Assembly (NCBI GenBank): GCA_963980225.1
Contig: CAXBYW010000001.1
Coordinates: 99,301-163,300 of the forward strand
Reading direction: 5' to 3'
Source: an uncultured bacterium
GTDB lineage: Bacteria; Patescibacteriota; Microgenomatia; UBA1400; MFAQ01
Length of the DNA: 64,000 nt
In this document: positions 13,627-35,201 of the stretch, piece after piece
How the letters are laid out: each line of letters begins with the position of its first letter
Numbering within the stretch: the stretch's first letter is position 1
Program-made: the position numbers and the translations under genes
Notes under the pieces: model-generated
The model's database searches: none
Told to the model about the DNA's origin: nothing
What the model saw: only the letters and a program-made list of their open reading frames with translations

Positions 13627-13956
13627 ATGGCAACCAAAAAACTTAAATCAGTAGCAGTAATCGAAATCTCTCCACGACAGTTTCTAGTCAAAGAGGGAGA
13701 TATCTTGGTTGTAAACAACCTACACCTTAAAGAAAAAGAAGTTATTACCCCTGAAGTTCTTCTAACCTTCGATGGTGAAAAGACCAAGATAGGCCAACCT
13801 TTCATTAAGGGTGCCGTAGTTAAACTAGAGCACATAGAAACTAAAAAGGGTGAAAAAATCAGAGTCTCAAGATTCAAAGCTAAATCAAGATATAGAAAAG
13901 TAAAAGGTAGCCGACAACTACAGACACATCTAAAGGTCAAAACCGTCAAAATCTAA
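13627..13956 (+). CDS. rplU: 50S ribosomal protein L21
   Basis: 109 aa with the L21 N-terminal pattern (MATKK...AVIEISPRQFLVKEGD). It is followed by rpmA in the conserved arrangement. Confidence 0.9.
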   Translation: MATKKLKSVAVIEISPRQFLVKEGDILVVNNLHLKEKEVITPEVLLTFDGEKTKIGQPFIKGAVVKLEHIETKKGEKIRVSRFKAKSRYRKVKGSRQLQTHLKVKTVKI

Positions 13957-13961
13957 ATAAA

Positions 13962-16112: not shown

Positions 16113-16669
16113 AGATTAGGATTCGTAATTGTTCCAATAGTTTCAGAAGGCCAGTATCTAAAGAATGCTCTACCTACAATATTCTCATATGGTACAGGTC
16201 CCCAGTCTCTACTATCTGAAGAGTGGTCGCGATTATCTCCAATGGCGATTATTGTAGAGTCTTGCACCAAGTACTCCATTCCATCCCTTAAAAATCGTCC
16301 TCCAGAAGTTGTGTAATCATTGGGTAAATATGGTTCCTCTAGTTTTTCTCCATTTAGGTAAACATATCCTCCTTGAATTAGGATTGTGTCACCCGGAACT
16401 GCCAGTACTCGCTTAATAAAGTCAAAGTTTTCATCTAATGGGGACTTGAACACAATCACATCACCTCTTGCGGGGTCTCGTCTCTTTAGGGTCACCTTGT
16501 CTGTTAAGAGATACTGTCCAGTTTCAAAGGTGGGGAACATAGAGCTTCCTTTTACTTGATGTGGTTGCATCAAAAAAAGATAAACTACCACAAACACAGA
16601 TGCCGAGACCACAAAAGCCTCAATCATCTCATAAACAATCTTAAATATTTTCTTTACAACACTCACCAC
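16109..16669 (-). CDS. lepB: signal peptidase I (S26)
   Basis: N-terminal TM, catalytic Ser region and GDNRDHSSDSRDWG box E motif. Confidence 0.85.
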   Translation of the reverse strand: MVSVVKKIFKIVYEMIEAFVVSASVFVVVYLFLMQPHQVKGSSMFPTFETGQYLLTDKVTLKRRDPARGDVIVFKSPLDENFDFIKRVLAVPGDTILIQGGYVYLNGEKLEEPYLPNDYTTSGGRFLRDGMEYLVQDSTIIAIGDNRDHSSDSRDWGPVPYENIVGRAFFRYWPSETIGTITNPNL

Positions 16670-16910: not shown

Positions 16911-17360
16911 TTACTTTTTTGATTTTTTACTCAGTAGGTAAGATGTCACAGCAATTATCGATGCCCAAGTAATGAAACTATTTCCTGTTTGACCTGAAGA
17001 TTTATTTGTCCCCTTAACTTCTCCTTTTCTGGGAGAGAGACTTAACTTAAGTGATGGAGTTGGTGTAATTTTCTTGATGCATGAATTACCAACTTCTTTA
17101 TATCCAGAATTACACATCCAGGTGTCTGAATTACTATTCACAGCATATGCATTTAAAGGAACCTTTACGCAATAACTCCTATTTACTGAAACCGTATAGC
17201 CGCCATTACATGAACATTTTCCTGTCCCAGAATCATATACGGAATTAGCCGGGCAACGAACACTGGTTCTTTTTGGAGGAGTATAGCTTGGAGGAGTATA
17301 GCCACCATTGTGGTAATGATATGTTCCAGCACATGATCCGACGTTACAATTCATCAACAA
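16911..17360 (-). CDS. cysteine-rich protein with C-terminal transmembrane anchor (tail-anchored or surface)
   Basis: 149 aa with 12 Cys in repeated C-x-C/GGYT-like spacing. C-terminal hydrophobic helix followed by KKSKK. Flanked by AT-rich noncoding DNA and tRNA-Val. Confidence 0.45.
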   Translation of the reverse strand: MLMNCNVGSCAGTYHYHNGGYTPPSYTPPKRTSVRCPANSVYDSGTGKCSCNGGYTVSVNRSYCVKVPLNAYAVNSNSDTWMCNSGYKEVGNSCIKKITPTPSLKLSLSPRKGEVKGTNKSSGQTGNSFITWASIIAVTSYLLSKKSKK

Positions 17361-17572
17361 TATTTATAGTTGCATAGGGGATCCAACTTGACTTTTATTC
17401 AATGGCTTACGGCAAACGACATATCAATATTTTTTACGTATACTCAGAGCGTCTCTTCCAAGAAGGAAGCCAAAGGATCAAATCTCATCAATTTCGCAGA
17501 GAAAGTTTAAGGTAATTAAAAAATTAGCTTGATAGTCACGTATCTATTAGATAATCAAATATAATGGTATGT

Positions 17573-18718
17573 ATGTCAAAAGAAAAAAAGCTTAAAATAG
17601 CAATCTTTCATAATTTACCTCAGGGTGGAGCTAAAAGATATTTATATGAGATTACAAGGAGGTTGTCAGAAAAATATGATATTGATGAATACAAAATAGA
17701 TACGGCTTCTCCTTATTTAGATTTATCACAAATCGTACAATCTTCAAAATCTTATCATTACCGTGGTGGAAGTGGAATAACGTCGATGGTTCGATCAATT
17801 GTAAAGTTACCTAAAGTTCATAAGCAAATAAGTGATGATGTCAATCTTGGTCAATATGACTTAGTTATTACAAATCACGATTATTTCACCAAAAGTCCAT
17901 ATCTACATAGATATTTAAGCGTACCGTGTGTATATATATGTCACGAGCCTCAAAGGGAGTTTTATGAAAAACAAAGTATTCATGCTCCCAGGTTTAGAGA
18001 AAAATTAGTGAACATATTAAGATATCCAATAAAATATATAGACATAATCAATACGAAAGCAGCATGTAATCTAATAGCTAATTCAAAATACTCACAAAAA
18101 TATTTAAAAAAAGTCTATGGATTAAGATCAAGCATGGTATATCCAGGTGTTGATAGTAAAGAATTTCTTTCTTCAGATAAAAAAGAAAACTTTGTTTTGG
18201 CTATCGGAAGCCTAAGTCCAATCAAAGGGCACGATTTTATTATCAAATCTCTTGGAAAGATTGAGAAACAACACAGACCATCCTTGACTGTTGTTGGTAG
18301 GTCTAATCAATATTACAAAGAAAAATTAGTTAAAATATCAAAAATAAATGGCGTTAAGCTCAGAACTCTAAGTCAAGTCTCTGACGTACAACTAAAAAAG
18401 ATGCTTTCATCTTCTTTAGCATATGTGTCTGGTGCTTACAGAGAACCATTTGGTTTGTGTATTTTAGAAGCCATGGCTTCTCAGACACCAGCTATAGTCG
18501 TTGAAGGAGGTGGAGCTGGTGAGCAGATAAAAAATGGTATTGATGGTTTTATAGTAAAACGAGACGAAGGTGAATTTGCTGATAAGCTTCTCATCATTAT
18601 AAAAAATAAAAAGAAAAGATCTATGGGGATAAAGGCTAAGGAAAGTATGAGGGATTGGACTTGGGAGCAATCAGCTAAAAAGTTAGATGAAATAATTAAA
18701 AAGAAAATCAAGCAATGA
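17573..18718 (+). CDS. glycosyltransferase family 4 (GT-B)
   Basis: C-terminal E-x7-E type motif REPFGLCILEAMASQTPAIVVEGGGAGE. Start taken at ATG 17573; the ORF track begins at GTG 17564. Confidence 0.75.
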   Translation: MSKEKKLKIAIFHNLPQGGAKRYLYEITRRLSEKYDIDEYKIDTASPYLDLSQIVQSSKSYHYRGGSGITSMVRSIVKLPKVHKQISDDVNLGQYDLVITNHDYFTKSPYLHRYLSVPCVYICHEPQREFYEKQSIHAPRFREKLVNILRYPIKYIDIINTKAACNLIANSKYSQKYLKKVYGLRSSMVYPGVDSKEFLSSDKKENFVLAIGSLSPIKGHDFIIKSLGKIEKQHRPSLTVVGRSNQYYKEKLVKISKINGVKLRTLSQVSDVQLKKMLSSSLAYVSGAYREPFGLCILEAMASQTPAIVVEGGGAGEQIKNGIDGFIVKRDEGEFADKLLIIIKNKKKRSMGIKAKESMRDWTWEQSAKKLDEIIKKKIKQ

Positions 18719-19800
18719 AAATTTCAGTTATCCGAGGAGCATTTTTGAACCCATTTGAGTTGCAAAACTACTACCCACTAGCCAAACGCCATAATGTCCA
18801 AGCAGTTTCTTCTTTAACGCCAATAAGCTCACAAATTAAACTGCCACTTAAAAAACTTTTAAGCCCCACTGATCTATGTGAATTCCCTTACAAATACTCT
18901 GTCCTTAACCGCGTCTTCAAAGATGCCCACTATCTCTTTGGTCTAGAAAAAGTAATAAAAGGGTCTGACATAGTTCACGTAGCCGAAACCTACTACAACT
19001 ATACCCTTCAAGCAATCAAGGCCAAAAGAAAGGGTTTAGTAAAGAAAGTAATCAGCACAGTTTGGGAGGTAATTCCTTTTAACAACGAAAGCTTGTCTGG
19101 CAGACGAGGAATAAAAAAGATTGCAAGAAAAGAGATAGACCACTTCATTACTCCCACCAACTTAGCCAAAAAAGCTTTACTTAAAGAAGGAATCTCTGCA
19201 AAAAAAATAACTGTAATACCTATGGGAATAGACCTTGATAGGTTCAAGCCTACCACCTCTGGTTCGAAGGTCAAGGGAGAAGTAACCATTCTCTTTATCG
19301 GTCGACTAGAAGAATCAAAAGGTGCAGACAATCTAGTTAAGGCTTTCATTAAGTTAAGCAAAAGTATTCTCAACCTGAAATTAAACTTAGTAGGGCAGGG
19401 GACACTAGAAGAAAAAATCACCACCTATAAAAACATCTCTCTAAAAACCGTCCACTACGACAAAATCCACTTAGAGTACCAAAAAGCAGACATCTTTTGT
19501 CTGCCAAGCCAAAATACTCCTACCTGGCAAGAGCAATATGGCATGGTCTTAGTAGAAGCCATGGCGAGTGGTCTGTCCATACTCACTACCGATACGGGAG
19601 CCATTAAAGAGGTCTGTGAGTCTGCCGCCGTTTACACAAAAGGATCTGTTCAAGCTTTGCATGATGGTTTAAAAAAACTTGTCTTGGATCATAAGAAAAG
19701 AAAGGAATTGGCAATAAAGGCCCGTCAACGTGCTGTTTCAAGGTACAATTCCCTAGATACGGCCAAGAAGATAGCCAAGGTATACAAAGATGTCTATTAA
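18715..19800 (+). CDS. glycosyltransferase family 4 (GT-B)
   Basis: QEQYGMVLVEAMASGLSILTTDTGAIKEV motif. It overlaps the previous GT gene by 4 bp. Confidence 0.75.
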   Translation: MKISVIRGAFLNPFELQNYYPLAKRHNVQAVSSLTPISSQIKLPLKKLLSPTDLCEFPYKYSVLNRVFKDAHYLFGLEKVIKGSDIVHVAETYYNYTLQAIKAKRKGLVKKVISTVWEVIPFNNESLSGRRGIKKIARKEIDHFITPTNLAKKALLKEGISAKKITVIPMGIDLDRFKPTTSGSKVKGEVTILFIGRLEESKGADNLVKAFIKLSKSILNLKLNLVGQGTLEEKITTYKNISLKTVHYDKIHLEYQKADIFCLPSQNTPTWQEQYGMVLVEAMASGLSILTTDTGAIKEVCESAAVYTKGSVQALHDGLKKLVLDHKKRKELAIKARQRAVSRYNSLDTAKKIAKVYKDVY

Positions 19801-22671: not shown

Positions 22672-23541
22672 ATGTCACCAGACAAATATACTGCCACCTG
22701 GGTTTCCCACTCCTCCATATCAGATTTTTTAAACTGCCCTAGAGCTTACTACTTAAAAAACGTCTACAAAGACCCAAAGACCAACCATAAAATACAGATA
22801 ATGACTCCACCGCTAGCCTTAGGCTCTGCGGTCCATGAAGTAATCGAGTCTCTCTCTACCATTCCCACCGACAGTCGGTTTAACAAGCCTTTAGCTCCCA
22901 AGTTTGAAAAAGTCTGGAAAGAGAAGTTTACCGGTAAAAAAGGTGGGTTTTTTGATAAAGACTCGGAAGAGAAGTCTTTTAACCAAGGAATAGAGATGAT
23001 AAAAAGGGTAGTAGACCACCCGGGCCCCTTATCAAACCTAGCCGTGAAAATAACCATGGAGCTTCCCTACTTCTGGCTATCAGAAGAAGACAACATCATT
23101 CTTTGTGGCAAGGTTGACTGGTTAGAGTACTTAAAGGAAAAAGACGCCGTCCACATTATCGACTTTAAAACAGGTAAGTCTGCAGAGGACCCAAAGTCTC
23201 TCCAACTTCCCATCTACCACTTACTAGTAACCGAAACTCAAAAAAGAAAGGTAGCTAAGGCTAGTTACTGGTACCTACAAAGAAAAAACAAACCAGAAGA
23301 GCAAAAACTACCTGACCTAAAAAAGGCACACAAACAAGTGCTAGAGATAGCCAAGAAAATAAAACTTGCTAGACAACTAAATAGGTTCAAGTGCCCTCAT
23401 GATGGCTGTGTCAGATGTAAAGACTTCGAGACAGTTCTAGAGGGTGGGGCAGAGCTAGTTGGAGTCAACGACTTCGGTAATGACGTGTATGTTATTAAAA
23501 AATCTTCATCAAGCAATAACCAAGAAAGCATCATTCTCTAA
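22672..23541 (+). CDS. PD-(D/E)XK nuclease superfamily protein with 4-Cys cluster (Cas4/AddB-nuclease-like)
   Basis: N-terminal Cys (FLNCPRAYY). Core IIDFKTGK (D-x-K) preceded by acidic residues. C-terminal C-x4-C-x2-C (CPHDGCVRC). Confidence 0.55.
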   Translation: MSPDKYTATWVSHSSISDFLNCPRAYYLKNVYKDPKTNHKIQIMTPPLALGSAVHEVIESLSTIPTDSRFNKPLAPKFEKVWKEKFTGKKGGFFDKDSEEKSFNQGIEMIKRVVDHPGPLSNLAVKITMELPYFWLSEEDNIILCGKVDWLEYLKEKDAVHIIDFKTGKSAEDPKSLQLPIYHLLVTETQKRKVAKASYWYLQRKNKPEEQKLPDLKKAHKQVLEIAKKIKLARQLNRFKCPHDGCVRCKDFETVLEGGAELVGVNDFGNDVYVIKKSSSSNNQESIIL

Positions 23542-25320: not shown

Positions 25321-25393
25321 GCGGGAATAGCTCAGTTGGTAGAGCATCTGCTTCCCAAGCAGAAGGTCGAGAGTTCAAACCTCTTTTCCCGCT
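25321..25393 (+). tRNA. tRNA-Gly (anticodon CCC)
   Basis: 73-nt cloverleaf: acceptor GCGGGAA/TTCCCGC, anticodon loop TTCCCAA, T-loop TTCAAAC. Confidence 0.8.
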
Positions 25394-25416
25394 CAAAATT
25401 ACTAAATAAAGAAACC

Positions 25417-26202
25417 ATGCCACACAATCAATACAGACAAAGACAAAGAAATCTTTATCAACCAGGGCAAAAGGAGCCTTTTAATGTCTCCCGTTCAAAA
25501 ATAGACATGTTCATGAGCTGTCCTCGCTGCTTCTATATGGACAGAAGGCTGGGGCTAGGTAAGCCCAGTATGCCTGCCTTTACCCTAAACTCCGCTGTGG
25601 ATAACTTATTCAAAAACGAGTTTGACCTACTAAGAAAAAAGGGAGAGGCTCACGAGCTAATGAAGCAGTACAAGATAGATGCCGTTCCTTTTAAGCACAA
25701 AGACTTACCTGCCTGGAGAGATGACTACTACAGGTACTTGGGAGCCAACGTCATCCATAAGCCTACCAACTTACGTATCGCCGGTATCATAGACGATATC
25801 TGGGAAGATCCAAAAGGCAACCTTTTAATAGTTGACTACAAATCTACCTGCACCACTAAGGAAATAAATCTAAATGACAAGTGGAAGCAAGGCTACAAAA
25901 AACAAATGGAAATCTATCAGTGGATCTTTAGGGCACTAGGCTTTACAGTTTCCGATACTGGCTACTTTGTCTTTGCCAACGGTCAAAGGAATAACCCCAG
26001 ATTTGACGGCAAGCTAGAGTTCACACTTTCCATTATTTCCTATAAAGGCTCGGACAGCTGGATAGAACAGGTACTGCTAGATATCAAAGAATGTCTAGAG
26101 TCAGACACAATCCCAAAGCCCGGAGTAGATGACCAGGGGATTACCTGTGAACACTGCACCTACAAAAAGCTTTCCGCTCAAACAGTCGCCAAGCTTTCTT
26201 AA
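25417..26202 (+). CDS. PD-(D/E)XK nuclease superfamily protein with 4-Cys cluster (paralog of 22672..23541)
   Basis: MSCPRCFY N-terminal Cys pair, LIVDYKST (D-x-K) and C-terminal ITCEHC. Start moved to ATG 25417 because the ORF-track start (25336) overlaps tRNA-Gly. Confidence 0.55.
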   Translation: MPHNQYRQRQRNLYQPGQKEPFNVSRSKIDMFMSCPRCFYMDRRLGLGKPSMPAFTLNSAVDNLFKNEFDLLRKKGEAHELMKQYKIDAVPFKHKDLPAWRDDYYRYLGANVIHKPTNLRIAGIIDDIWEDPKGNLLIVDYKSTCTTKEINLNDKWKQGYKKQMEIYQWIFRALGFTVSDTGYFVFANGQRNNPRFDGKLEFTLSIISYKGSDSWIEQVLLDIKECLESDTIPKPGVDDQGITCEHCTYKKLSAQTVAKLS

Positions 26203-27248
26203 TGGTCTCTATCTAACACGAAATGAACAAGTTTTAACAGATTACTTCTTGCTGGTTCTTCTTTCAAAAACCCTAGATTTTTCTCAAAATACTCCAAAGC
26301 CAACTGTTTGTACTCCTTGGCCTTATTTCTTGCGTAAGTAATGCTTCCCAACTCCTCCATCTTCTTCGTCACCCAGGCTATCTCTGTCTTGGTTTTTTTC
26401 TCTTGAGGCTTGCCTAGTACTGTCAGTAGTTTCTTTCTATCCTCACCCTTAATCTGTTCTAGTAAGTGGCCAAGTATCAGCGTGCGCTTACTTTCCTTTA
26501 TATCTCCACCCTTATCCTTTAAACCGCCAAAATCTCCGGTCACATCCAAAAGATCATCCACTAACTGAAAACACCTACCTAAATACAGTCCAAAGTGAGT
26601 CAGCTTATTAAGTTCATCATTACTTGCTCCTGCGATCATAGCTCCTAGTCTTAGAGGCGCCACAATGCTGTAGTAAGCCGTCTTACCATCGGCAATGAAT
26701 AACCAATCATCTTCTGTTACTTCAAGCTTAGAAGAGGCTACCCAGTCCATCTCTACACCTTGTCCAAGGGCCGTCCGCATCAAGACAGTGTTTAACTCTC
26801 TTATGATCCTAAAGGTAAGTTCGTCTCCTAAGATTTCTTTGTTATCAAACAAAACCCTCCACATAATCATATGCAGCATGTCACCAGCATTCAAAGCTTC
26901 TCCTAAACCATATTTTTTATGTAAACACGCCTCACCTCGTCTTTTTAGTGAGTTGTCCTCGATATCATCATGGATCAAAAGCCACTCTTCAGAAATCTGT
27001 ACAGCCGCAGCTGTCTTCAAAGCTTTTTTTGGGTCTCCTCCCAAAGCTTCACAGCAAAGCATGAGTAGGCTTGGTCTTAAGTACTTACCCTGCCTCTTGG
27101 GGTACTCACTAACTGTCTGCCAAACTCTTTTTGTCTCACCACGAAATCTACCATCGACTTTAAATAGTTCATGGTACTCGGGGTCGACTAAATAGTCTTT
27201 AACCTCTTTCCAAACTTTGGTCTTGTATCCGTTAAGTATTCCTAACAT
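26199..27248 (-). CDS. polyprenyl diphosphate synthase (trans-isoprenyl diphosphate synthase family)
   Basis: First Asp-rich motif DDIEDNSLKRRG and second FQLVDDLLD. Start set at the internal Met (27248) because the ORF-track N-terminus overlaps tRNA-Thr. Confidence 0.8.
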   Translation of the reverse strand: MLGILNGYKTKVWKEVKDYLVDPEYHELFKVDGRFRGETKRVWQTVSEYPKRQGKYLRPSLLMLCCEALGGDPKKALKTAAAVQISEEWLLIHDDIEDNSLKRRGEACLHKKYGLGEALNAGDMLHMIMWRVLFDNKEILGDELTFRIIRELNTVLMRTALGQGVEMDWVASSKLEVTEDDWLFIADGKTAYYSIVAPLRLGAMIAGASNDELNKLTHFGLYLGRCFQLVDDLLDVTGDFGGLKDKGGDIKESKRTLILGHLLEQIKGEDRKKLLTVLGKPQEKKTKTEIAWVTKKMEELGSITYARNKAKEYKQLALEYFEKNLGFLKEEPARSNLLKLVHFVLDRDH

Positions 27249-27277
27249 AAAGCAAGTATAATTATACTTGAATATTA

Positions 27278-27350
27278 GCCTGCGTAGCTCATCTGGTAGA
27301 GCAGCGGTATCGTAAACCGCAGGTAGTCGGTTCAAGTCCGACCGCAGGCT
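27278..27350 (+). tRNA. tRNA-Thr (anticodon CGT)
   Basis: 73-nt cloverleaf: acceptor GCCTGCG/CGCAGGC, anticodon loop ATCGTAA, T-loop TTCAAGT. Confidence 0.85.
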
Positions 27351-27386
27351 CAAGTTTTCTTAAACTAGTCCCTTTGGGGCTCTGTT

Positions 27387-27959
27387 TTATCTAGGTAAAC
27401 TTAAGGTTATTCCTTTATAAAGCATGCTCGGATTAGGTCCAATTAGCTCTTTGTTTGCCTGGTAAATACTTACCCAAGCGAAACCGTCGCCATAGGCTCT
27501 TACAGCTATATCCCAAAGATAATCACCAGCTACAGTAGTGTAGCTATCAGACTCTATGGTGTTTACCAACGTGGTGTCTTCTACGGTAATTTTTCTAACT
27601 GCTACTTGTGGAATAACTAGCTCTTGGCCTACTTCTATTAGTCCAGGGTCTGTGATCAAGTTAGCCTCAGCTATGTCTACAAAATTGTAGCCAGATTTAT
27701 AAAATCTTTCAGCAATACTCCATAAGTGATCTCCTTTTTCTACTATATAGGTATCAGGTAGGTGATCTGGTTTCTCTCCTTCTGTGACTTCGATAATCTT
27801 AACTGGGTCGGTCAATGTACCTTTGTCGTTATCAATAGACTTAAAGTAGTTGAACATTAAAACAGCCACAATCACCACAACCACTCCGCCCATTAATGTG
27901 CTTATAGTTGTCTCGTTAATCTTAAGCGCTTTTAATAAATTCTTTAATTTTTTTTCCAT
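27387..27959 (-). CDS. LysM-domain membrane-anchored protein (two LysM repeats)
   Basis: Two YIVEKGDHLWSIAERF / YTTVAGDYLWDIAVRAYG LysM motifs after an N-terminal TM. Start chosen at MEKKLKN (27959), which has the strong SD AAGGAGGTGA 8 nt upstream. Confidence 0.7.
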   Translation of the reverse strand: MEKKLKNLLKALKINETTISTLMGGVVVVIVAVLMFNYFKSIDNDKGTLTDPVKIIEVTEGEKPDHLPDTYIVEKGDHLWSIAERFYKSGYNFVDIAEANLITDPGLIEVGQELVIPQVAVRKITVEDTTLVNTIESDSYTTVAGDYLWDIAVRAYGDGFAWVSIYQANKELIGPNPSMLYKGITLSLPR

Positions 27960-28097
27960 TATTAATCTCACCTCCTTTTGACCCATCTTATATATCCAAA
28001 CTATCTACGTCAAGATCTAAAAAGCTCAAAACACTAGCAATTTCTTATAAGATCAGTCAAGCAACCGATGAGTTATTCCTTGTCAGGTCTGTACTTA

Positions 28098-28189
28098 CCC
28101 GGGGATTTTTTTATACCTAAAACCACAAGCATGAAACTATATCAAACTACATCTGCAGGGTATACGGGACCATTTTCGAACTTTTTACC
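28098..28189 (+). repeat. repeat module copy R1 (T-run + ATACCTAAAACC linker + tRNA-Asp-3-prime-like core)
   Basis: GGGGATTTTTTTATACCTAAAACC ... ATCAAACTACATCTGCAGGGTATACGGGACCATTTTCGAACTTTTTACC. It shares a TCAAACTAYNTCTGCRGGG segment with the flank and end of the genuine tRNA-Asp at 32005. Confidence 0.5.
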
Positions 28190-28218
28190 ATAGAATTTTC
28201 CTTTGATATAATTTCTGT

Positions 28219-28710
28219 ATGAAGACTTCTCAACAAGTATATCAAGATGCAAAATCTTTACTTGAAAATACTGAAATAATTGATTTGTTTAATGATCTAG
28301 GAACAGTACATATTGTCGGATCATACGCAGCTAATTTAATGTGGGACCCAGACATTGATATTGTTGTGGTAACAGATAATCCACAAGAATCTGCTATAAA
28401 GGCAATCAATGGTCTTGCAAGAAAAGAAAAATTTCAAAAACTTGAATTTGGAGATTTTAAAAACCATCCTAAGAAAAATAGACCAGAATCCTTTATTGTA
28501 AACGCGCGTAAAGAGTGGAAGGGTGAAAAATGGGAAATAGAAACATGGTTTGTTACAGAATTAGGTGATAACTTAGAGGTTATTGAAAAACTCAAAAATC
28601 TGAATAACAAAGATAAGGAAGCTATTATAGAAAAAAAGAAACAACGTTCTTTGTCTGGAAATACAAAACATGAGTTATCGTCATGGAAAATATATCAAGA
28701 TTTTATATAA
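28219..28710 (+). CDS. nucleotidyltransferase-fold protein (minimal NTase, pol-beta superfamily)
   Basis: GSYAANLMWDPDIDIVVV matches the GS-x(n)-DxD NTase motif. 163 aa. A TATAAT box sits 7 nt upstream of the ATG with no SD, suggesting a possibly leaderless transcript. Confidence 0.45.
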   Translation: MKTSQQVYQDAKSLLENTEIIDLFNDLGTVHIVGSYAANLMWDPDIDIVVVTDNPQESAIKAINGLARKEKFQKLEFGDFKNHPKKNRPESFIVNARKEWKGEKWEIETWFVTELGDNLEVIEKLKNLNNKDKEAIIEKKKQRSLSGNTKHELSSWKIYQDFI

Positions 28711-28772
28711 GTCCCAAAACTCGTGCGGGGTATACGGGACGACGTTCGAACTTTTTATCTGATTATTTAACC
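28711..28772 (+). repeat. repeat module copy R2
   Basis: GTCCCAAAACTCGTGCGGGGTATACGGGACGACGTTCGAACTTTTTATCTGATTATTTAACC. Confidence 0.5.
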
Positions 28773-29440
28773 AAATCTATTTCTCCCAAAACCTTTGTTT
28801 TATTTGGGGTCAAAAACTCATCATTTATAGAAACTCTTACAGTGTCCACAGTTAAGTCGCTAGTAATGGGTTTTAAATCCATTAGTTCTCTTATCAAGTC
28901 ATCTGGAATCTCTTTCTTAAATCTAACCAAACTCATCCATGCTAATCCATAAGCTCCTTCGGGGATTCCAATTTTCCAGTCCTGTTCTTGCCATATACTT
29001 CCCAGCTTATTTCTCATGTTCACTAGGTGATTTGCATTTTCTGCATTAAATATTCCGAACAAATTCTTCTTCCCTAGTAGGGGATAAATCATTTTTCCTT
29101 TTATCGCATCTTCCGTGTTTAAACTAGATTTAATACTATCCACCAAGGTCTCTAGATCCATGCCTTTCAAGTTTTCCTTTAGTACCCATTGAACTGAGAA
29201 GTGATAACCTTCCCAAGGCTGCCAAACTACATATTCATTTAGTCGTTCTGGTAACGCGTCTCGCATTTTTTCATTAATTGTTTTTCTATCGTCTAAGCTA
29301 GGTAGTAGAACTACACTTAATGTTATCGTTTCTACTTCCTTTTCAGTTAGGAGTACAACTCCGTTTTCTTCGACAAACTGCCGTTGTCCTTCTAAATTAT
29401 TTCTCCAGCCTTCAGGTATCTTTGAACTCAGTATCTCCAT
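28763..29440 (-). CDS. hypothetical protein
   Basis: 225 aa ORF with no recognisable motif. It has no SD and lies between repeat copies R2 and R3. Confidence 0.4.
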   Translation of the reverse strand: MEILSSKIPEGWRNNLEGQRQFVEENGVVLLTEKEVETITLSVVLLPSLDDRKTINEKMRDALPERLNEYVVWQPWEGYHFSVQWVLKENLKGMDLETLVDSIKSSLNTEDAIKGKMIYPLLGKKNLFGIFNAENANHLVNMRNKLGSIWQEQDWKIGIPEGAYGLAWMSLVRFKKEIPDDLIRELMDLKPITSDLTVDTVRVSINDEFLTPNKTKVLGEIDLVK

Positions 29441-29480
29441 AGTTCGATTCTAGCATCATAGATTAAAAAGAACCAATTGT

Positions 29481-29543
29481 GTCAAACTATGTCTGCGGGG
29501 CATACGGGACGATGTTCGAACTTTTTATTTGACTATTTAAACA
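29481..29543 (+). repeat. repeat module copy R3
   Basis: GTCAAACTATGTCTGCGGGGCATACGGGACGATGTTCGAACTTTTTATTTGACTATTTAAAC. Confidence 0.5.
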
Positions 29544-29562
29544 ATAAAACATGCACTCCCTA

Positions 29563-30054
29563 TTATTCTTCAAGAATGTCCAGTTGCAATAAAGCTGGGT
29601 CCCACGTTCCTTCAGCTACAATAGTATTATTCTCTACATAATAATTTAACCACCCACCATATTCTGAAAAAAAGCGTGACGCTGAGTATATTCCCATTCC
29701 ACCAATTCCTGGTTTTCCTTCATCGTCTAGTCTAGTAGTTTTTGGTTTTCCTGAATCCCTTATTGCAATTATTGCTTTTAAAACTGCCTCTGGATCATCA
29801 TACTCAAAATCATCCTTTATCGTTAACTTGCCAACTTCAAAACTAATCCAAACATTACTTGCACCTTCATCGCTTCCTGGAATCCTATTTTCCACACAGT
29901 TATTTATCAACTCAGCCACTTTTCCCCAAATTGCATCTCTTAAATCTCCACCATGATCGGCTGGTATCTCACCATCAAAATGAGCATCAACTTGATAGTG
30001 TTTTTCATATCCTTCAATAAGGTTAATATGGGGAATGCGTTCAGGAACAGCCAT
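29563..30054 (-). CDS. hypothetical acidic protein
   Basis: 163 aa ORF with no recognised domain. Confidence 0.4.
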   Translation of the reverse strand: MAVPERIPHINLIEGYEKHYQVDAHFDGEIPADHGGDLRDAIWGKVAELINNCVENRIPGSDEGASNVWISFEVGKLTIKDDFEYDDPEAVLKAIIAIRDSGKPKTTRLDDEGKPGIGGMGIYSASRFFSEYGGWLNYYVENNTIVAEGTWDPALLQLDILEE

Positions 30055-30210
30055 AATTTAACGGAATTATATATTAAACAAAAACAAGAATCCTTTATTT
30101 GGTAGAAAATGACAGATAATTATCTTATAAGTGATACAATGTGGGTTGTTCATTGAAATAGTTACCGTATCTCACATTCAATATTTTAATTTCATTCAAG
30201 GAGGTAAATC

Positions 30211-30360
30211 ATGAGTGATGAAGTTCTTATTTCTCCATGTCACAAGGAAGCACTTGTTCCCATACGTCGGGACGGAGAGATAATCTTTGTATGTGGCTAT
30301 TCACATTGTGATCGTGTGATAGCTGTAGATCTGTGTAGTGAAAATGTTTCTGCAGATTAA
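30211..30360 (+). CDS. small Cys/His-rich protein (49 aa), putative zinc-binding
   Basis: ATG at 30211 with the strong SD CAAGGAGGT 7 nt upstream. C-H...C-x4-HC...C pattern. Below the ORF-track size cutoff. Confidence 0.35.
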   Translation: MSDEVLISPCHKEALVPIRRDGEIIFVCGYSHCDRVIAVDLCSENVSAD

Positions 30361-30406
30361 ATATTAACTTGCTTAATTTTTAGTGCTATGCACAAGGAGA
30401 TCAATT

Positions 30407-30556
30407 ATGCGTAAAGTTTTCTTTATCATTCTTGCTTTTGTACTTGCAACCCTTTTTAGAAACTTACTGTTATCTGTTTTTAATATAGATATAGACTGGC
30501 TATCTACACTCATATTCTTAAGCGCTGGTTTTTTGGTTGGACGGATGAAGGATTAG
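30407..30556 (+). CDS. small hydrophobic protein (49 aa)
   Basis: ATG at 30407 with SD AAGGAGA upstream. Two predicted TM helices. Followed by an intrinsic terminator. Confidence 0.3.
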   Translation: MRKVFFIILAFVLATLFRNLLLSVFNIDIDWLSTLIFLSAGFLVGRMKD

Positions 30557-30587
30557 CCCACTTTTATATTTTTAGATCACAAACTTT

Positions 30588-30620
30588 CCTCTCAGAAAAA
30601 CTTCTGAGGGGATTTTTTAT
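30588..30620 (+). terminator. rho-independent terminator (CCTCTCAGAA-AAAC-TTCTGAGGGG + T-run)
   Basis: 10-bp stem with one G-U pair, a 4-nt loop, then ATTTTTTAT. It is part of the 80-bp module duplicated at 31611. Confidence 0.6.
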
Positions 30621-30682
30621 GCCTAAAAACCGTTGCGGGGTATACGGGATGATGTTCGAACTTTTTACACAACTATTTAGCC
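30621..30682 (+). repeat. repeat module copy R4
   Basis: GCCTAAAAACCGTTGCGGGGTATACGGGATGATGTTCGAACTTTTTACACAACTATTTAGCC. Confidence 0.5.
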
Positions 30683-30795
30683 TTAAACTAAGGTTTGAAT
30701 GACCCATAAGTTGTATTTTAAGTATAAATTTGGTATATTAAGCACATATTTACACTGGCACTTTAATATTGTTTTCTTAGTCAAGGAGGCTTAAA

Positions 30796-31266
30796 ATGGA
30801 TTATTTCACGATAGTTGAAGTCAAAAATGGGCCAGAGATCAGTAAGGCAATTTACGGCAACGACTTACCTGTTGATGATAATACAGTACATGAGTTAGTT
30901 CAAATACTCGCAGGCAATGATCCTTGTTCCCAAATAGCACTTTGTCCTGTAACGAATGAAAAATCTGTGCCCGCATTAGCCAGTGCTCAGCACACAATGA
31001 TCCTCGCATTTACAAACATGCTTGAAGATGGAATTTATGGCATTATAGAGTGGGTCTGCACGATTCTTGATCCTGCAATGCCAAAAGGATGGGGAGCGGC
31101 TCTTACACAACCAACCTTCTTTGATAGTGTTTTGATCTCTAGCAAAGAACCTATCTATTTGATAGTCCTTTCACCAATGGATCGCTCCAAAACAAGCCCC
31201 ATTACTCATTTTATGATGGGTGACCCGCATTGTGATGAATGCCCAACTCTTATTCCCATGGCATAA
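30796..31266 (+). CDS. hypothetical protein
   Basis: 156 aa. SD AAGGAGG 7 nt upstream. Cys-containing with a C-terminal HCDEC motif. Confidence 0.45.
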   Translation: MDYFTIVEVKNGPEISKAIYGNDLPVDDNTVHELVQILAGNDPCSQIALCPVTNEKSVPALASAQHTMILAFTNMLEDGIYGIIEWVCTILDPAMPKGWGAALTQPTFFDSVLISSKEPIYLIVLSPMDRSKTSPITHFMMGDPHCDECPTLIPMA

Positions 31267-31288
31267 CCAACAACCTTAGGAGGTTAAA

Positions 31289-31576
31289 GTGAACCTAGTA
31301 TTTTATTTAGTAATACAAATAACCCTAATAATGATCGGTACGTTCATATTGTCACGATTATCAGACAATCTTAAAACCTTTTCCAAGAAACAAAAGGTTG
31401 CATATTTCGCTTCAACAATCACACTCTTCTTTATCGCTGTTCTAATCGAGCCAAAGGAAATCGGTAATTGGTATGATCCACCCATTATCGTAGCAGATCT
31501 AATCCTTGCTATGGTGGTTGCAGGCATAATTTACTTATTTATGCTTTGGTATAACAACAAAACAGCCAAAAAATAA
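31289..31576 (+). CDS. hypothetical membrane protein (3 TM)
   Basis: 95 aa. GTG start with SD TAGGAGGT upstream. Confidence 0.4.
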   Translation: MNLVFYLVIQITLIMIGTFILSRLSDNLKTFSKKQKVAYFASTITLFFIAVLIEPKEIGNWYDPPIIVADLILAMVVAGIIYLFMLWYNNKTAKK

Positions 31577-31610
31577 AGCTTAAATTACAGTGAAAATACA
31601 TAAAAACTTT

Positions 31611-31641
31611 CCCTTCAGAAAACTTCTGGAGGGATTTTTTT
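31611..31641 (+). terminator. rho-independent terminator (CCCTTCAGAA-AAC-TTCTGGAGGG + T-run), near-identical to 30588
   Basis: Hairpin plus a run of seven T. It follows the plus-strand gene ending at 31576. Confidence 0.6.
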
Positions 31642-31690
31642 GTCTCAAAAACCTCTGCGGGGTATATGGGACGACGTTCGAACTTTTACT
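31642..31690 (+). repeat. repeat module copy R5
   Basis: TCTCAAAAACCTCTGCGGGGTATATGGGACGACGTTCGAACTTTTACT. It lies 315 bp from the genuine tRNA-Asp. Confidence 0.5.
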
Positions 31691-31949
31691 TATCTTTAAA
31701 TAGAATGATTTCTCCCTTGGTCAGTTTGTAAACTACTTCTGAATTGATGGATTCAATGGCTTTAAAACGTAAACCCGCCCCGTTTTGTGGTGCAAACAAA
31801 ATGTTGTGGTCAGGATATTGAGAAGCAAGAGATTTTTTAATTCTTGTGATTTCCTCGCCACATAAAGGCTCTTCAACAAGGTATCCACCAAAACAATCAT
31901 GTTCTATGGGGCAATCATCATAGCAAGGTGTTTTCTCTCGTTCTTTCAT
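31686..31949 (-). CDS. hypothetical small acidic Cys-containing protein
   Basis: 87 aa with CYDDCPIEHDC...C. No SD. Confidence 0.35.
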   Translation of the reverse strand: MKEREKTPCYDDCPIEHDCFGGYLVEEPLCGEEITRIKKSLASQYPDHNILFAPQNGAGLRFKAIESINSEVVYKLTKGEIILFKDK

Positions 31950-32004
31950 GTCTGGATCATATCACATGATATTCACACTCACTAAACACATCAAACTATC
32001 TCTG

Positions 32005-32079
32005 CGGGGCTGACCGGACTCGAACCGGCGACCTCTTCCGTGACAGGGAAGCGCTCTAACCAAACTGAGCTACAGCCCC
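32005..32079 (-). tRNA. tRNA-Asp (anticodon GTC)
   Basis: 75-nt cloverleaf on the minus strand: GGGGCTG...CTTCC-CTGTCAC-GGAAG...GCCGG-TTCGAGT-CCGGT-CAGCCCC-G. Confidence 0.85.
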
Positions 32080-32154: not shown

Positions 32155-32742
32155 ATGGAATTTTTGTACTTAATTATCGCTGTCTCATTATTCTTAGGTC
32201 TTTACATTATTTCTACATATAACTGGTTCCAGACCAGCCTAGTTAGGATAAAAGCTAGTATCCAGGATATTGGTAACCAATTAAAAAGACAGGCCTCGTT
32301 AATTCCTAATCTAGAATCATCCGCCAAAGGCTATCTAAAGCACGAAAAGGGTATATTTAAATCTCTAACCGACGCTAGAAAAGCAGTCGATACAGCTGCT
32401 AAGTCAGGCAACATGAAAGACATTACCAAAGCTTCTGACAGCTTAAGTAAGGTTCTTCCTAAGATCCAAGTACTAGTGGAGAGCAACCCTGAGATAAAAG
32501 GGGAGAAGGTAGTAACAAAATTAATGAGTGAGTTGCGTGATACGTCAGACAAACTAATGTACGCCAGAAGGACTCTCATAGACCTATCTGCTGATTTCAA
32601 CCAGAAGCTCTTAGTCTTCCCCTCAAACTTAGTAGGTAATATGTTTAAGTTTAAGGCACAAAAAGGTCTGGGTACCCCAGATAGCGGGGCTCACCTAGAG
32701 GTAACCACAACGGAAACCAAAGACCCTAAAGTCTCTCTGTAG
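32155..32742 (+). CDS. LemA family protein
   Basis: N-terminal TM then a LemA-like helical domain (WFQ..LV...A.I.DIG.QLKRQA.LIPNL). Start placed at MEFLYL. Confidence 0.7.
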   Translation: MEFLYLIIAVSLFLGLYIISTYNWFQTSLVRIKASIQDIGNQLKRQASLIPNLESSAKGYLKHEKGIFKSLTDARKAVDTAAKSGNMKDITKASDSLSKVLPKIQVLVESNPEIKGEKVVTKLMSELRDTSDKLMYARRTLIDLSADFNQKLLVFPSNLVGNMFKFKAQKGLGTPDSGAHLEVTTTETKDPKVSL

Positions 32743-32752: not shown

Positions 32753-33646
32753 ATGAAAAACATATACGAGCTAGCAGATATAAACAAGAGAAAAAGTGCG
32801 CTGGTTATCTTCCTCTTCATTGCTTTTATTACCCTAGCAAGTTACTTCTTGGCTTACAGTTTTGGCTACGATCTAAGCCTAGTTGGTTTCGTCTTAATCT
32901 TTTCCGGCATAATTTCGTTCGCTAGCTACTACTACTCGGACAGGATAATCCTAAGTATCTCTAGTGCTACTCCAGCCATCAGAGAAGACCATTTTGAGTT
33001 CTACACCGTTACTGAAAATCTAGTTAGAGTTGCTAGAATTCCCCAACCTAGACTTTTTGTCATAAAAGACACTGCTATGAACGCTTTTGCTACCGGCAGG
33101 GATCCACAACACGCGGTTGTAGTCGTTACTACCGGGCTACTAAGTAAGTTAAACCGTACAGAACTAGAGGGAGTTGTGGCCCACGAACTAAGCCACATTA
33201 GAAACTTTGACATTCGTCTTATGGGGATAGTGACCGTCTTAGTGGGAATGTTAACCTTACTAGCAGACATCCTTTTAAGATCAAGATTCAGAAGTAGCAG
33301 AGGTAAGAACGACTCAGGACAGATAGGTATCATTATCTTCATAGTAGGAGTTGCCCTAGCTCTTCTTTCTCCGCTAATAGCTAACTTAATCAAACTTGCC
33401 ATATCCAGAAGACGAGAGTTCTTAGCCGACGCTTCTGCGGTCAAGTTAACTAGGTACCCAGCCGGATTGGCTAGTGCCCTAAAGAAGATAAGTAAAGATA
33501 CTGAACCACTAGAGGCAGCTAACAAGGCCACTGCCCACCTATACATCTCTAACCCGCTTAAAAATACTCACAGCGCCATTGGCTGGTTTGCCAAGGCCTT
33601 TAACACTCATCCCCCAATAGGGGAGCGCATTAAGGCTCTTTCCTGA
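32753..33646 (+). CDS. htpX: M48 family zinc metalloprotease (HtpX-like)
   Basis: HELSH (HExxH) plus a downstream glutamate ligand, and 4 TM segments. It is paired with LemA as commonly seen. Confidence 0.8.
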   Translation: MKNIYELADINKRKSALVIFLFIAFITLASYFLAYSFGYDLSLVGFVLIFSGIISFASYYYSDRIILSISSATPAIREDHFEFYTVTENLVRVARIPQPRLFVIKDTAMNAFATGRDPQHAVVVVTTGLLSKLNRTELEGVVAHELSHIRNFDIRLMGIVTVLVGMLTLLADILLRSRFRSSRGKNDSGQIGIIIFIVGVALALLSPLIANLIKLAISRRREFLADASAVKLTRYPAGLASALKKISKDTEPLEAANKATAHLYISNPLKNTHSAIGWFAKAFNTHPPIGERIKALS

Positions 33647-33659: not shown

Positions 33660-35201
33660 ATGACTAGTGTAAAAGACATCGCCAAACTTGCCCATTTAAC
33701 TTTAACCGAAGAAGAGTTAAAGCTTTACTCAAAGCAGTTTGAGGCCATCTTAGGCTACATCGACCAGCTAAATAAAGTAGATACCAAAGGTGTAACACCA
33801 ACATTCCAGACAATAGACGACACCACCAATATTTTTAGAGAAGACAAAGTTCTCCCTGGACTAACTCAAGACCAAGCTCTTTCTGCTGCCAAAAAAACCC
33901 ACGATGGTTATTTTATAGCAGACCACGTCTTTGATCCCAAAGTAACTAAAAAAGCGGTCACTCATACTCCAAGAGAAAAACAAGACAACCTTGGTGCCAT
34001 CTTAACCAAGGTAGACCCAAAGGGAACCGTTGGTCACAAAGATCTCTTTTGTACTAAGGGTGTAGAGACAAGCGCTGGTTCAAATGTCCTGTCTGGCTAC
34101 ATTCCTCAGTACTCTGCTACCTTGGTCAATCAGTTTGAAGAAATAGGTTTAAAAACCAAGTACAAGTTAAACCAGGACGCTTGGGGTCATGGTTCAAGTG
34201 GTGAAAACTCCGACTTTTTCCCCACCCAAAATCCTTGGGACAAAAAAAGAGTTGCTGGTGGATCATCTAGCGGTAGTGGCGCAGCTGTTGCCGCAGGTGA
34301 AGTAGATATATCAACCGGTACCGATACTTGCGGTTCCATCAGGATGCCTTCAGCTTACTGTAACCTGACTGGTCTAAAACCTACCTATGGTGCTCTAAGT
34401 AGATACGGAGTCATTGCTTTTGCTAGTAGCCTAGACTGCCCTGGCATAATGACTACCTCGGCCGAGAAACTTAAAAAAACATTCAAGTCAGTTACTAAAA
34501 AAGACTCATTAGACGCTACCAGCCAGAGCTCCATTAGAGATAATGTCGAAACCAAGACAATTAAAACCATCGGTATACCTAAAGAATTTCTATCAGAAGG
34601 AATCGATAAGGAGATCAAGGAAATCACCTTAAAAGCCAGTAAGGATCTTGAGAAGGCAGGCTTCAAAGTAAAATACGTATCCTTACCCCACGCTGAACTT
34701 GCTATCGCTGCCTACTATATTATCGCTCCAGTAGAAGCTTCAAGTAACCTAGCTAGATACGATGGAGTCAGGTATGGTAATGATAGAACTCATTTCGGTC
34801 CAGAAGCTAAAAGAAGAATAATGTTAGGTACTTTTGCTTCCTCTGCTGGCTATGCAGACAAGTATTACGAGCAGGCTGCCAAGGTTCGTACTTTAATAAT
34901 CAACGACTTTAAAAAGGCTTTTGAGTCAGTCGATGCTATCTTAGCGCCAGTCTCACCAACAGTCCCCTTCCTTCTAGGTGAAAAGGTAGATGATCCTCTA
35001 AAACTATATCTAATGGACATCTACACCGCTCCAGCCAGTCTTGCTGGTGTTCCATCACTATCTCTTCCTTGTGGTTTCTCACAAGAACTACCTGTGGGCA
35101 TGCAGTTAATCGCACCACGCTGGAATGATCTAAAACTTCTTGAGTTGGCAGAAAAATATCAAGAGTTAACCGACTGGCACAAGAAGAAACCAAACATATG
35201 A
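33660..35201 (+). CDS. gatCA: GatC-GatA fusion: aspartyl/glutamyl-tRNA amidotransferase subunit C fused to the subunit A amidase
   Basis: The first ~95 aa match GatC (IAKLAHLTLTEEELKLYSKQFEAILGYIDQLNKVDTKGVTP). The remainder is the amidase-signature enzyme (GGSSSGSGAAVAAGEVDISTGTDTCGSIRMP). gatB follows with a 4-bp overlap. Confidence 0.75.
   Translation: MTSVKDIAKLAHLTLTEEELKLYSKQFEAILGYIDQLNKVDTKGVTPTFQTIDDTTNIFREDKVLPGLTQDQALSAAKKTHDGYFIADHVFDPKVTKKAVTHTPREKQDNLGAILTKVDPKGTVGHKDLFCTKGVETSAGSNVLSGYIPQYSATLVNQFEEIGLKTKYKLNQDAWGHGSSGENSDFFPTQNPWDKKRVAGGSSSGSGAAVAAGEVDISTGTDTCGSIRMPSAYCNLTGLKPTYGALSRYGVIAFASSLDCPGIMTTSAEKLKKTFKSVTKKDSLDATSQSSIRDNVETKTIKTIGIPKEFLSEGIDKEIKEITLKASKDLEKAGFKVKYVSLPHAELAIAAYYIIAPVEASSNLARYDGVRYGNDRTHFGPEAKRRIMLGTFASSAGYADKYYEQAAKVRTLIINDFKKAFESVDAILAPVSPTVPFLLGEKVDDPLKLYLMDIYTAPASLAGVPSLSLPCGFSQELPVGMQLIAPRWNDLKLLELAEKYQELTDWHKKKPNI

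Follow-up and report, generated by a model that had tools for sequence, protein, structure and literature searches.

A tRNA-Asp gene followed by an array of small recombinase-less cassettes, each ending in a conserved tRNA-derived site, in the chromosome of an uncultured Patescibacteria bacterium

We analyzed a stretch of 64,000 nucleotides from the contig CAXBYW010000001.1 of an uncultured bacterium with a tiny genome belonging to the Patescibacteria (Microgenomates type), and we refer to this whole stretch as the window. Its gene content is that of an ordinary chromosome: FtsW/MurG/FtsA/FtsZ, an aminoacyl-tRNA synthetase, ParB, LepB and glycosyltransferases are present, and the window also holds GatCAB, DnaE, L19, RuvABC, enolase and UvrB. 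The region described here, at 28098-32003, lies between a tRNA-Asp(GTC) gene and a gene encoding a LysM-domain protein, and its G+C content is 0.34-0.38, compared with 0.40-0.43 in the surroundings. It is an array of five cassettes of 348-1140 bp. Each cassette holds one to three genes and ends, on the side away from the tRNA, in a copy of a 34-nt site that resembles the 3' end of tRNA-Asp. The coordinates are listed in Table 1.

Table 1. Positions in the window of the tRNA-Asp gene, the repeats, the cassettes, their genes and the flanking genes
Feature	Position	Strand	Description
LysM-domain gene	27387-27986	minus	Conserved flank away from the tRNA
Far-end relic	28098-28152	minus	After R1: AGATGTAGTTTGATATAG, then GGTTTTAGGTATAAAAAAATCCCC (28102-28124)
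Cassette 1	28153-28722	minus	570 bp; furthest from the tRNA; gene C1; ends in R1
R1	28153-28187	+	35-nt consensus match; most diverged copy
C1	28219-28710	+	163 aa; minimal nucleotidyltransferase, borderline call
Cassette 2	28723-29492	minus	770 bp; gene C2; ends in R2
R2	28723-28757	+	35-nt consensus match
C2	28763-29440	minus	225 aa; 2H phosphoesterase fold
Cassette 3	29493-30632	minus	1140 bp; genes C3, C4a, C4b; ends in R3
R3	29493-29527	+	35-nt consensus match
C3	29563-30054	minus	163 aa; stand-alone GHKL/histidine-kinase-type ATP-binding domain
C4a	30211-30360	+	49 aa; Cys/His-rich; no recognizable family
C4b	30383-30556	+	57 aa; hydrophobic; no recognizable family
Cassette 4	30633-31654	minus	1022 bp; genes C5a, C5b; ends in R4
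R4	30633-30667	+	35-nt consensus match
C5a	30796-31266	+	156 aa; orphan; no recognizable family
C5b	31289-31576	+	95 aa; hydrophobic, probably membrane; no recognizable family
Cassette 5	31655-32002	minus	348 bp; nearest the tRNA; gene C6; ends in R5
R5	31655-31689	+	35-nt consensus match
C6	31686-31949	minus	87 aa; Cys-rich orphan; no recognizable family
tRNA-Asp(GTC)	32004-32079	minus	Intact; ARAGORN; Rfam tRNA 32005-32079, 71 bits
LemA	32155-32742	+	Conserved flank 5' of the tRNA
HtpX/M48 peptidase	32753-33646	+	Conserved flank 5' of the tRNA

The repeats were located with a 35-nt consensus, allowing at most 3 mismatches, over the 64-kb window. Five direct copies (R1 to R5) were obtained on the plus strand, and shuffled sequence gave none. 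Neither a looser core pattern nor an nhmmer profile made from the five copies revealed a sixth copy in the 64 kb. An earlier sequence-only reading of this DNA, which was made without database searches, had claimed five repeats in the same orientation together with a genuine tRNA-Asp gene, and the consensus search, ARAGORN and Rfam agree with it. On the minus strand, the repeats follow the 3' end of tRNA-Asp and run in the same direction as the tRNA. The 3' terminus of the tRNA, ...CAGCCCCGCA (32003-32012 on the plus strand), is the position at which the array starts. That is, it is the anchor of the array, in a role like that of attB or attI.

The cassette genes point in both directions and are accompanied by their own promoter- or terminator-like signals, and the orientation of the repeats relative to the tRNA is constant regardless of the orientation of the genes. 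Cassette 5 has a promoter-like site at 31994-31966, and the stop codon of its gene C6 is the TAA of the repeat's TAAAAG. The best promoter-like sequence of the region, TTTACC-17-TATAAT with TG before it, is located at the border of R1 and C1 (28184-28212). Strong hairpins of intrinsic-terminator type in cassette 3 (30587-30612) and cassette 4 (31610-31634) end the plus-strand gene pairs just before R4 and R5, and they are the only hairpins there. At the far end of the array, beyond R1, there is a short relic in which the motif GGTTTTAGGTATAAAAAAATCCCC also follows R4, R5 and the tRNA-Asp of relatives. This relic is probably what is left of the flank that the tRNA had originally, or of a junction of earlier date.

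Alignment of the repeats with tRNA-Asp, from the T-loop to the 3' end and including the flank, gave 68-79% identity over 37-39 nt, where more than 65% had been expected by the sequence-only reading. The site, read in the orientation of the tRNA, is TAAAAAG TTCGAAC.TCGTCCCGTATACCCCGCA and ends exactly at the position at which the tRNA ends. That is, the 34-nt site is a copy of tRNA-Asp from the T-loop to the 3' end that carries a 5-nt insertion and the change CAG>ATA. The insertion stands after GTTCGA and is identical in all five repeats. Exact identity between the site and the resident tRNA is limited to the terminal 7-8 nt, CCCCGCA(G), and the repeats are nearer still to the type of tRNA-Asp found at a related locus (L085, described below) than to the resident one. 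The flank AGA.ATAGTTTGA is common to R1, R3 and tRNA-Asp, as had been noticed before. The core of the repeat has no stable single-stranded DNA fold (z +1.3 to +1.7 compared with shuffles), and terminal inverted repeats were not seen at the repeats. We rejected the possibility that the repeats are functional tRNAs, pseudo-tRNAs or members of a known RNA family: ARAGORN and Rfam (E up to 1) matched real tRNAs only, and, if the repeat were read as a tRNA, the 5-nt insertion would enlarge its T-loop to 12 nt.

The same site is present in other organisms. A scan of metagenomes with a degenerate pattern of the core returned six contigs, two of them identical to the window and four from other organisms (related loci are designated by L numbers). 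In L082, the start of LemA and the tRNA-Asp gene are 82% identical to the window at the nucleotide level, and two different cassettes with two sites follow. L085, which is the same locus as L088 on the 704-kb contig Ga0272443_10000005, has one different cassette with one site at the same place after tRNA-Asp. In L084 and L083, the sites flank genes for a methyltransferase, a histidine phosphatase and a 942-aa protein. A further array, L122, was found via a homologue of C2 (80% identity). At its LysM/tRNA-Thr end it matches the window with 83% nucleotide identity. Six or more sites are spread over 8.5 kb or more of this array, and its cargo is different, with an HD protein and a NUDIX hydrolase among the products.

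Fourteen strict copies from six organisms define a conserved block of 34 nt, tAAAAAG TTCGAAC.TCGTCCCGTATaCCCCGC A, which is about 90-100% conserved in the six organisms, and the information drops sharply on either side of it. The copy of L085 is identical to R2 at 35 of 35 positions, while the tRNA-Asp genes of the two organisms are only 92% identical and the flanking proteins of L088 and the window 59-73% identical. The 5-nt insertion and the change CAG>ATA, relative to any tRNA-Asp, are present in all copies of the site. Therefore, the copies have a single derived sequence as their ancestor and move together with the cassettes. Judged from these shared characters, the 34-nt site is a cassette-borne, attP/attC-like site and not a product of fresh or independently decayed duplications of the host tRNA. 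The sequence-only reading had regarded the repeats as att relics with a decayed T-arm. Their origin from the tRNA stands, and the independent decay of copies of the resident tRNA does not agree with the shared derived characters and the strong conservation.

The site occurs only in arrays 3' of tRNA-Asp or on short cassette-like contigs, in keeping with the earlier claim that the repeats are not dispersed. It is absent elsewhere in the 64 kb, elsewhere in the 20 kb of L088, and in 80 related loci. A phage or satellite as the carrier of the site was rejected, because scans of viral contigs gave no match or chance 16-mers and PHROGs gave nothing. As for the genes between the sites, one of the eight open reading frames (ORFs) of the window array, C2, recurs in other arrays (L122 and L123), and the genes shared between arrays are C2 and the gene common to L082 and L088 only. 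Distant homologues of the L085 cassette gene (L090, L092, L140 and L144) are not in such arrays.

The ends of the units could be determined from the shared cassettes. L082 and L085 have one cassette in common, whose gene encodes 172-191 aa as ORFs. The nucleotide homology between these loci starts at the 5' end of the tRNA, upstream of which the sequences are unrelated, and ends exactly after the ...CCCCGCA of the site; past this point comes a further cassette in L082 and the end of a YfhO-like gene in L085. In comparison with relatives, the variable DNA begins directly after the ...CCCCGCAG of the tRNA. The C2 cassettes of the window, L122 and L123 can be aligned over a stretch that starts about 60 nt before the start codon and reaches the site, and in the window and L122 both ends of the cassette are the same. 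Therefore, each unit begins and ends at a position that corresponds to the 3' terminus of the tRNA. Such boundaries would be the expected product of a short-core crossover at CCCCGCA(G) between a cassette-borne site and the tRNA end. Either AGnGnTTTTTGAGA followed by a hairpin or AGA.ATAGTTTGA stands downstream of the core at most internal junctions and at the tRNAs of L082 and L085, and the sites at the array termini have neither of them. These downstream motifs may represent a conserved second end of the cassette, with which their distribution fits.

The state of the locus before insertion can be seen in relatives. The nearest species-representative genomes are metagenome-assembled genomes (MAGs) of Microgenomates-type Patescibacteria with an HtpX identity of 54-64%; the repeat is absent in them, and they are useful for ancestral synteny only. 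An exact-match look-up of the HtpX of the window returned no record. In L002, L003, L006 and L021 the site is empty, that is, tRNA-Asp is flanked directly at its 3' end by a LysM orthologue and on the opposite side by LemA-HtpX. The LysM gene is about 40 bp from tRNA-Asp in L002 and 120 bp in L021, and in L003 and L006 the LysM orthologue is contained in a Gly-Asp tRNA interval of about 680 bp and 690 bp, respectively. The distance from tRNA-Gly to tRNA-Asp in L005 is 57 bp. Since the LysM gene stands beside tRNA-Asp in distant relatives, the 3.9 kb of the window is an insertion at the 3' end of the tRNA. From this comparison, the tRNA-Asp and LysM genes are neighbors in the ancestral arrangement. 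L088 is colinear with the window on both sides, with a PD-(D/E)XK nuclease, polyprenyl synthase and LysM on one side of the array and tRNA-Asp, LemA, GatCAB, DnaE and L19 on the other. Among the flanks named in the sequence-only reading, lepB (16109-16669) is not at the border but 11 kb away. Its proposal of repeated site-specific integration and tandem accretion at the 3' end of tRNA-Asp is supported by the empty sites and by the differing cassettes in L088, L082 and L122.

We then consider the proteins encoded by the cassettes. C1 matched NTP_transf_2 in Pfam with an E value of 3e-4 and 21.5 bits against a cut-off of 21, so that the nucleotidyltransferase proposed earlier is a borderline call; the weak matches of C1 to 'anti-phage NTase/cyclase' entries of PADLOC and NCBIfam were far under the cut-off. 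The other ORFs had been described as lacking recognizable domains, and this does not hold for C2 and C3, both of which have nucleotide-enzyme folds. In the case of C3, the family alignment showed conservation of E..N..N / DD / GGxGI, and profile matches in the PDB were to topo II, MutL and histidine kinases (E about 0.002-0.003). The AlphaFold2 model of C3 (predicted local distance difference test score 89) matched the catalytic and ATP-binding domains of histidine kinases in Foldseek (E 5e-6). C5a has a single distant homologue (35%) besides one near-identical copy.

The annotated cargo of related arrays includes a NUDIX hydrolase, an HD-domain protein, a methyltransferase and a histidine phosphatase. 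Enzymes of the types found in the cargo often occur in defense and counter-defense systems, and no system was identified here. PADLOC, PHROGs and NCBIfam gave nothing significant for a defense or phage assignment, and we rejected an assignment to a defense system because the matches in PADLOC and NCBIfam were sub-threshold ones to nucleotidyltransferases only. By analogy with the enzyme types, it is plausible that the cargo may have a role in defense or counter-defense; the earlier idea of a defense/anti-defense islet is kept as a suggestion.

Two relatives have insertions of the classical type at the same tRNA. L123, a more distant seawater locus (LemA 66% identical; 2636-4330), has the homologue of C2 as the first cassette after tRNA-Asp. 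This cassette is followed by a true partial copy of tRNA-Asp of about 55 nt (3483-3545), and a second cassette by one of about 45 nt (4286-4330); the derived 34-nt site is not used there as a separator. In L011, a Shapirobacteria MAG, a 4.6-kb element bounded by a 31-bp direct repeat lies at tRNA-Asp (3579-8302). It encodes a large serine recombinase (6777-8267), the frame of which runs into the tRNA, together with Rep-like and helix-turn-helix (HTH) proteins, and a duplicate of the C-terminus of the recombinase is present at the far repeat (3403-3654). From the insertions in L123 and L011 it follows that tRNA-Asp is a recurrent integration target in this radiation. In its sequence, the site of the window type looks like a compact derivative of such classical att duplications.

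Copies of tRNA 3' ends were also observed at other loci. L016 (2206-2501) has a tRNA-Ser(GGA) with a 40-bp copy of its 3' end about 200 bp downstream, L033 (19571-19912) has a tRNA-Lys with a 20-bp 3'-end copy, and L012 (6335-6501) has a tRNA-Asp with a 22-bp 3'-end copy about 70 bp downstream. Insertions of small size at the ends of tRNA genes seem to be frequent in Patescibacteria.

We think that the array arose as mini-cassettes without a recombinase gene were inserted one after another, in a site-specific manner, at the 3' end of tRNA-Asp, each cassette carrying a 34-nt mimic of the tRNA end and the recombinase acting in trans, and we put the probability of this explanation at about 0.58. 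According to it, a circular cassette with the 34-nt site (attP/attC-like) would recombine with the 3' terminus of tRNA-Asp (attB/attI-like), and the crossover core would be CCCCGCA(G), which is common to the site and the tRNA. The tRNA would be left intact, and the newest cassette would adjoin it. The recombinase would be supplied from elsewhere in the genome or from a helper element. The turnover observed between species would result if DNA between any two sites were excised or replaced. That is, we infer site-specific recombination, circular intermediates and a recombinase in trans from the structure of the arrays.

Several observations weigh against this explanation. Pfam detected no tyrosine or serine recombinase in any ORF of at least 90 aa in the 64 kb, which agrees with the earlier statement that the interval has no integrase, and L122, L123 and the 20 kb that surround the array of L088 did not yield one either. 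The large unannotated ORFs of L122 (345 and 502 aa) are not recognizable recombinases. Neither an obvious dyad symmetry nor a hairpin is seen in the site, so that the type of recombinase cannot be guessed from it. No circular or excised form was seen. Moreover, the DNA on either side of the C2 cassette, toward LysM and toward the tRNA, is different in the window and L122, and therefore a simple accretion with the newest cassette next to the tRNA does not account for everything. Finally, no activity of the array is visible within the population. This population is abundant in metagenomes, with an identical C2 in about 60 sample blocks and contigs of up to 526 kb, and the array is structurally identical in 23 contigs retrieved via C2 and 23 via LemA (about 55-60 sample blocks). 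Thus, the turnover was seen between species and not within the population of the window. One exception was found in L116, which is the same as L128 (ERZ4200978 NODE_2382, about 3.5x coverage). Here 28 bp are inserted exactly at the 3' end of tRNA-Asp (about 32003-32015), in that CGGTCAGCCCCGC (13 bp) is directly duplicated and a filler of 15 bp, CCATTTGCGACTTGT, stands between the two copies. This insertion looks like a recombination footprint or a micro-insertion at the docking point, and it could be an assembly error.

The array could consist of dead relics, that is, of integrase-bearing elements that inserted at tRNA-Asp and were whittled by deletion in a streamlined genome, so that no unit would be mobile any longer and the repeats would be old attP-derived arms. 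The fixation of the array in 23 conspecific contigs, the lack of a recombinase nearby, the integrase-bearing 4.6-kb element at tRNA-Asp in L011 and the classical partial-tRNA duplications in L123 all speak for such an origin. However, no integrase fragment or pseudogene was found in the five cassettes of the window or in the arrays of L122, L123, L082 and L088. The site is as conserved as the tRNA or more, while the flanking proteins are 59-86% identical, and neutral relics should decay. In addition, three arrays contain the same minimal C2 cassette and differ in its position, and the turnover of the cargo is almost complete between species that are 82-83% identical in the flanks. We consider it unlikely that the array is made of relics. 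Were it no more than the fossil of serial integrations, it would be a small genomic islet of the ordinary kind. Another way to exchange cassettes without a dedicated recombinase would be RecA-dependent homologous exchange after uptake of DNA, in which the tRNA and the 34-nt repeats, originally seeded by an integrase, would serve as homology anchors. Patescibacteria commonly encode machinery for DNA uptake. This account agrees with the failure to find a recombinase, and the homology blocks that extend from the tRNA to the end of a repeat also fit double crossovers. The difference between the window and L122 on the LysM side of C2, and not only beside the tRNA, is also in keeping with it. Nevertheless, 34 nt is at the lower limit for efficient exchange by RecA, and the constant site, the sharp edges, the precise end at the position of the tRNA 3' end and the conserved motif of the other end, AGnGnTTTTTGAGA, are left unexplained. 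Homologous exchange thus seems quite improbable to us.

The repeats might also be clustered at the tRNA by coincidence and belong to a dispersed family, such as repetitive extragenic palindromes (REP) or miniature inverted-repeat transposable elements (MITE), or to a transcribed regulatory or processing element with a tRNA-like RNA signal. They are indeed short, conserved and intergenic, and R4 and R5 stand beside terminator hairpins. On the other hand, the copies are restricted to tRNA-Asp arrays or cassette-like short contigs, have a single orientation relative to the tRNA, and show neither a stable fold nor an Rfam match nor terminal inverted repeats. REP/MITE was rejected, since there are no copies outside the array in the 64 kb, the L088 copies (20 kb) are only at tRNA-Asp, none are in the 80 related loci, and no hairpin is present. 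We regard this whole class of explanations as extremely improbable. An insertion of the Tn7-like or IS200/IS605-like type was also set aside, because there was no sign of a transposase and inspection of the cassette ends by eye revealed neither terminal inverted repeats nor subterminal hairpins.

Beyond the serial insertion of cassettes, a wider role of these arrays is possible. By analogy with integrons, they might constitute a cassette-capture platform of Patescibacteria, with the 3' terminus of tRNA-Asp as the dock, self-expressed mini-cassettes whose sole mobility determinant would be the 34-bp mimic of the tRNA end, a distant dedicated recombinase for their insertion and excision, and a shared accessory pool; we propose this tentatively and with considerable doubt. 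If it were so, the cassettes would be a gene pool, possibly related to conflicts, that is shared among related episymbionts. The genomes of Patescibacteria are about 0.5-0.7 Mb in size, and the gain of accessory genes in them is little understood. Recombinase-free cassettes at a tRNA would be an economical route of gene flux for streamlined cells. The 34-nt site offers a practical handle in this respect, as arrays from five other organisms have already been recovered. It can be used to catalogue the pool of cassettes and to find the recombinase by co-occurrence.

Some further features of the window were observed. In 25321-27351, tRNA-Gly(CCC) and tRNA-Thr(CGT) lie in this order on the plus strand with the PD-(D/E)XK nuclease and polyprenyl synthase genes between them. 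The Thr, Gly and Asp tRNAs are grouped on the minus strand in more distant relatives (L002, L003 and L005), within 300 bp in L005. From the order of the genes, this change implies an inversion plus gene gain in the lineage of the window. In L088, tRNA-Thr is on the plus strand and adjoins the same nuclease and polyprenyl synthase genes. The window has two paralogous genes for PD-(D/E)XK (Cas4/RecB-like) nucleases about 2 kb apart (22672-23541 and 25336-26202); one of them abuts tRNA-Gly, and the upstream extension of its listed ORF overlaps the tRNA. GatC and GatA are fused in one 513-aa ORF (33660-35201; GatC and Amidase domains) and are separate genes in L088. HtpX is a 297-aa ORF in the window and has 189 aa in most near-identical contigs (for example, L113 and L125), a difference that is probably due to the start chosen by the gene caller and not to the sequence. 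The sole mobile-element gene of the window is that of an unrelated insertion-sequence-type DDE (rve) transposase (11568-12467, minus strand). After it come three small orphan ORFs (12660-13949) and a DNA/RNA methyltransferase gene (13962-14816), and 11568-14816 may be a second small accessory patch. A protein with a 'putative phage metallopeptidase' domain (46852-47253, flanked by ruvB and a holA-like gene) and a holin-family (Phage_holin_4_2) protein (59605-60009) are both encoded in a housekeeping context. A 149-aa protein (16911-17360) has a Pfam match to EGF_MSP1_1 (E 1.5e-7), which is unusual for bacteria, and adjoins a GT4 glycosyltransferase pair of low G+C content (0.34; 17000-19000).

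A full-text literature search did not find a description of such arrays in Patescibacteria, a statement that applies to the searched literature only. We therefore compared the array with known systems of other organisms. Integron arrays also consist of small, mostly one-gene units with one conserved site each, and their orphan cargo differs between relatives. Clusters of attC sites lacking an integrase (CALINs) resemble the array of the window in that no integrase adjoins them. The attC sites are structured, being imperfect palindromes of 60-140 bp that fold as hairpins. In contrast, the 34-nt site has no such imperfect-palindrome fold, the window has no IntI, attI or cassette promoter (Pc), and the anchor is the 3' end of a tRNA. 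The genes of the cassettes also differ from those of integron cassettes in that they point both ways and have their own promoter- and terminator-like signals. An identification of the site as attC was rejected on these grounds, that is, the site has no hairpin, no protein of the IntI/Phage_integrase type is encoded in the window, and the genes are in both orientations.

A further parallel is the concept, treated in reviews (PMC5704250, PMC6323972), of the cis-mobilizable elements (CIMEs) of streptococci and of accretion with integrative and conjugative elements (ICEs) or integrative and mobilizable elements (IMEs). CIMEs are flanked by att sites and devoid of recombination genes, and they are presumably moved by an integrase in trans. 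Like a CIME, each cassette of the window lies between two sites and has no recombinase. CIMEs accumulate in tandem at the 3' end of a tRNA or another conserved gene, and they are usually single decay products beside an ICE or IME of known integrase. Unlike them, the window has a multi-cassette array, its site family recurs in several species, and no partner element is present in the 64 kb. An autonomous partner element with a cognate integrase was found neither in the 64-kb window nor in the related loci examined. The element of L011 is similar to the array in that it uses the same target tRNA in the same radiation and is bounded by a direct repeat of the tRNA 3' end plus flank. It differs in that it is single, carries its own recombinase with Rep-like and HTH proteins, and has a different repeat sequence.

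The closest parallels are tRNA-anchored islands that grow by tandem accretion. In the tycheposon islands of Prochlorococcus, elements insert at the 3' end of a tRNA, the tRNA remains intact, and partial tRNA copies lie between the elements; newcomers displace older elements from the gene, and the cargo varies among relatives (bioRxiv 10.1101/2020.12.28.424599). The ssrA-specific islands of Dehalococcoides are reported to show tandem integration at the 3' end of the transfer-messenger RNA gene (PMC3146451). The array of the window shares with tRNA-anchored islands of this kind the intact tRNA, the direct repeats derived from its 3' end in the orientation of the tRNA, the variable cargo and the empty sites. 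The units of the tycheposon and ssrA islands are several kb in size and have their own tyrosine recombinase, whereas those of the window are 0.35-1.1 kb and contain neither a recombinase nor a fragment of one. Furthermore, true partial tRNAs are the separators in those islands, while a derived 34-nt site that is conserved across species has this place in the window, and the layout of self-expressed cassettes in both orientations is a further difference. Taken together, the array matches the known tRNA-anchored tandem accretion in its logic and is a compact variant of it.

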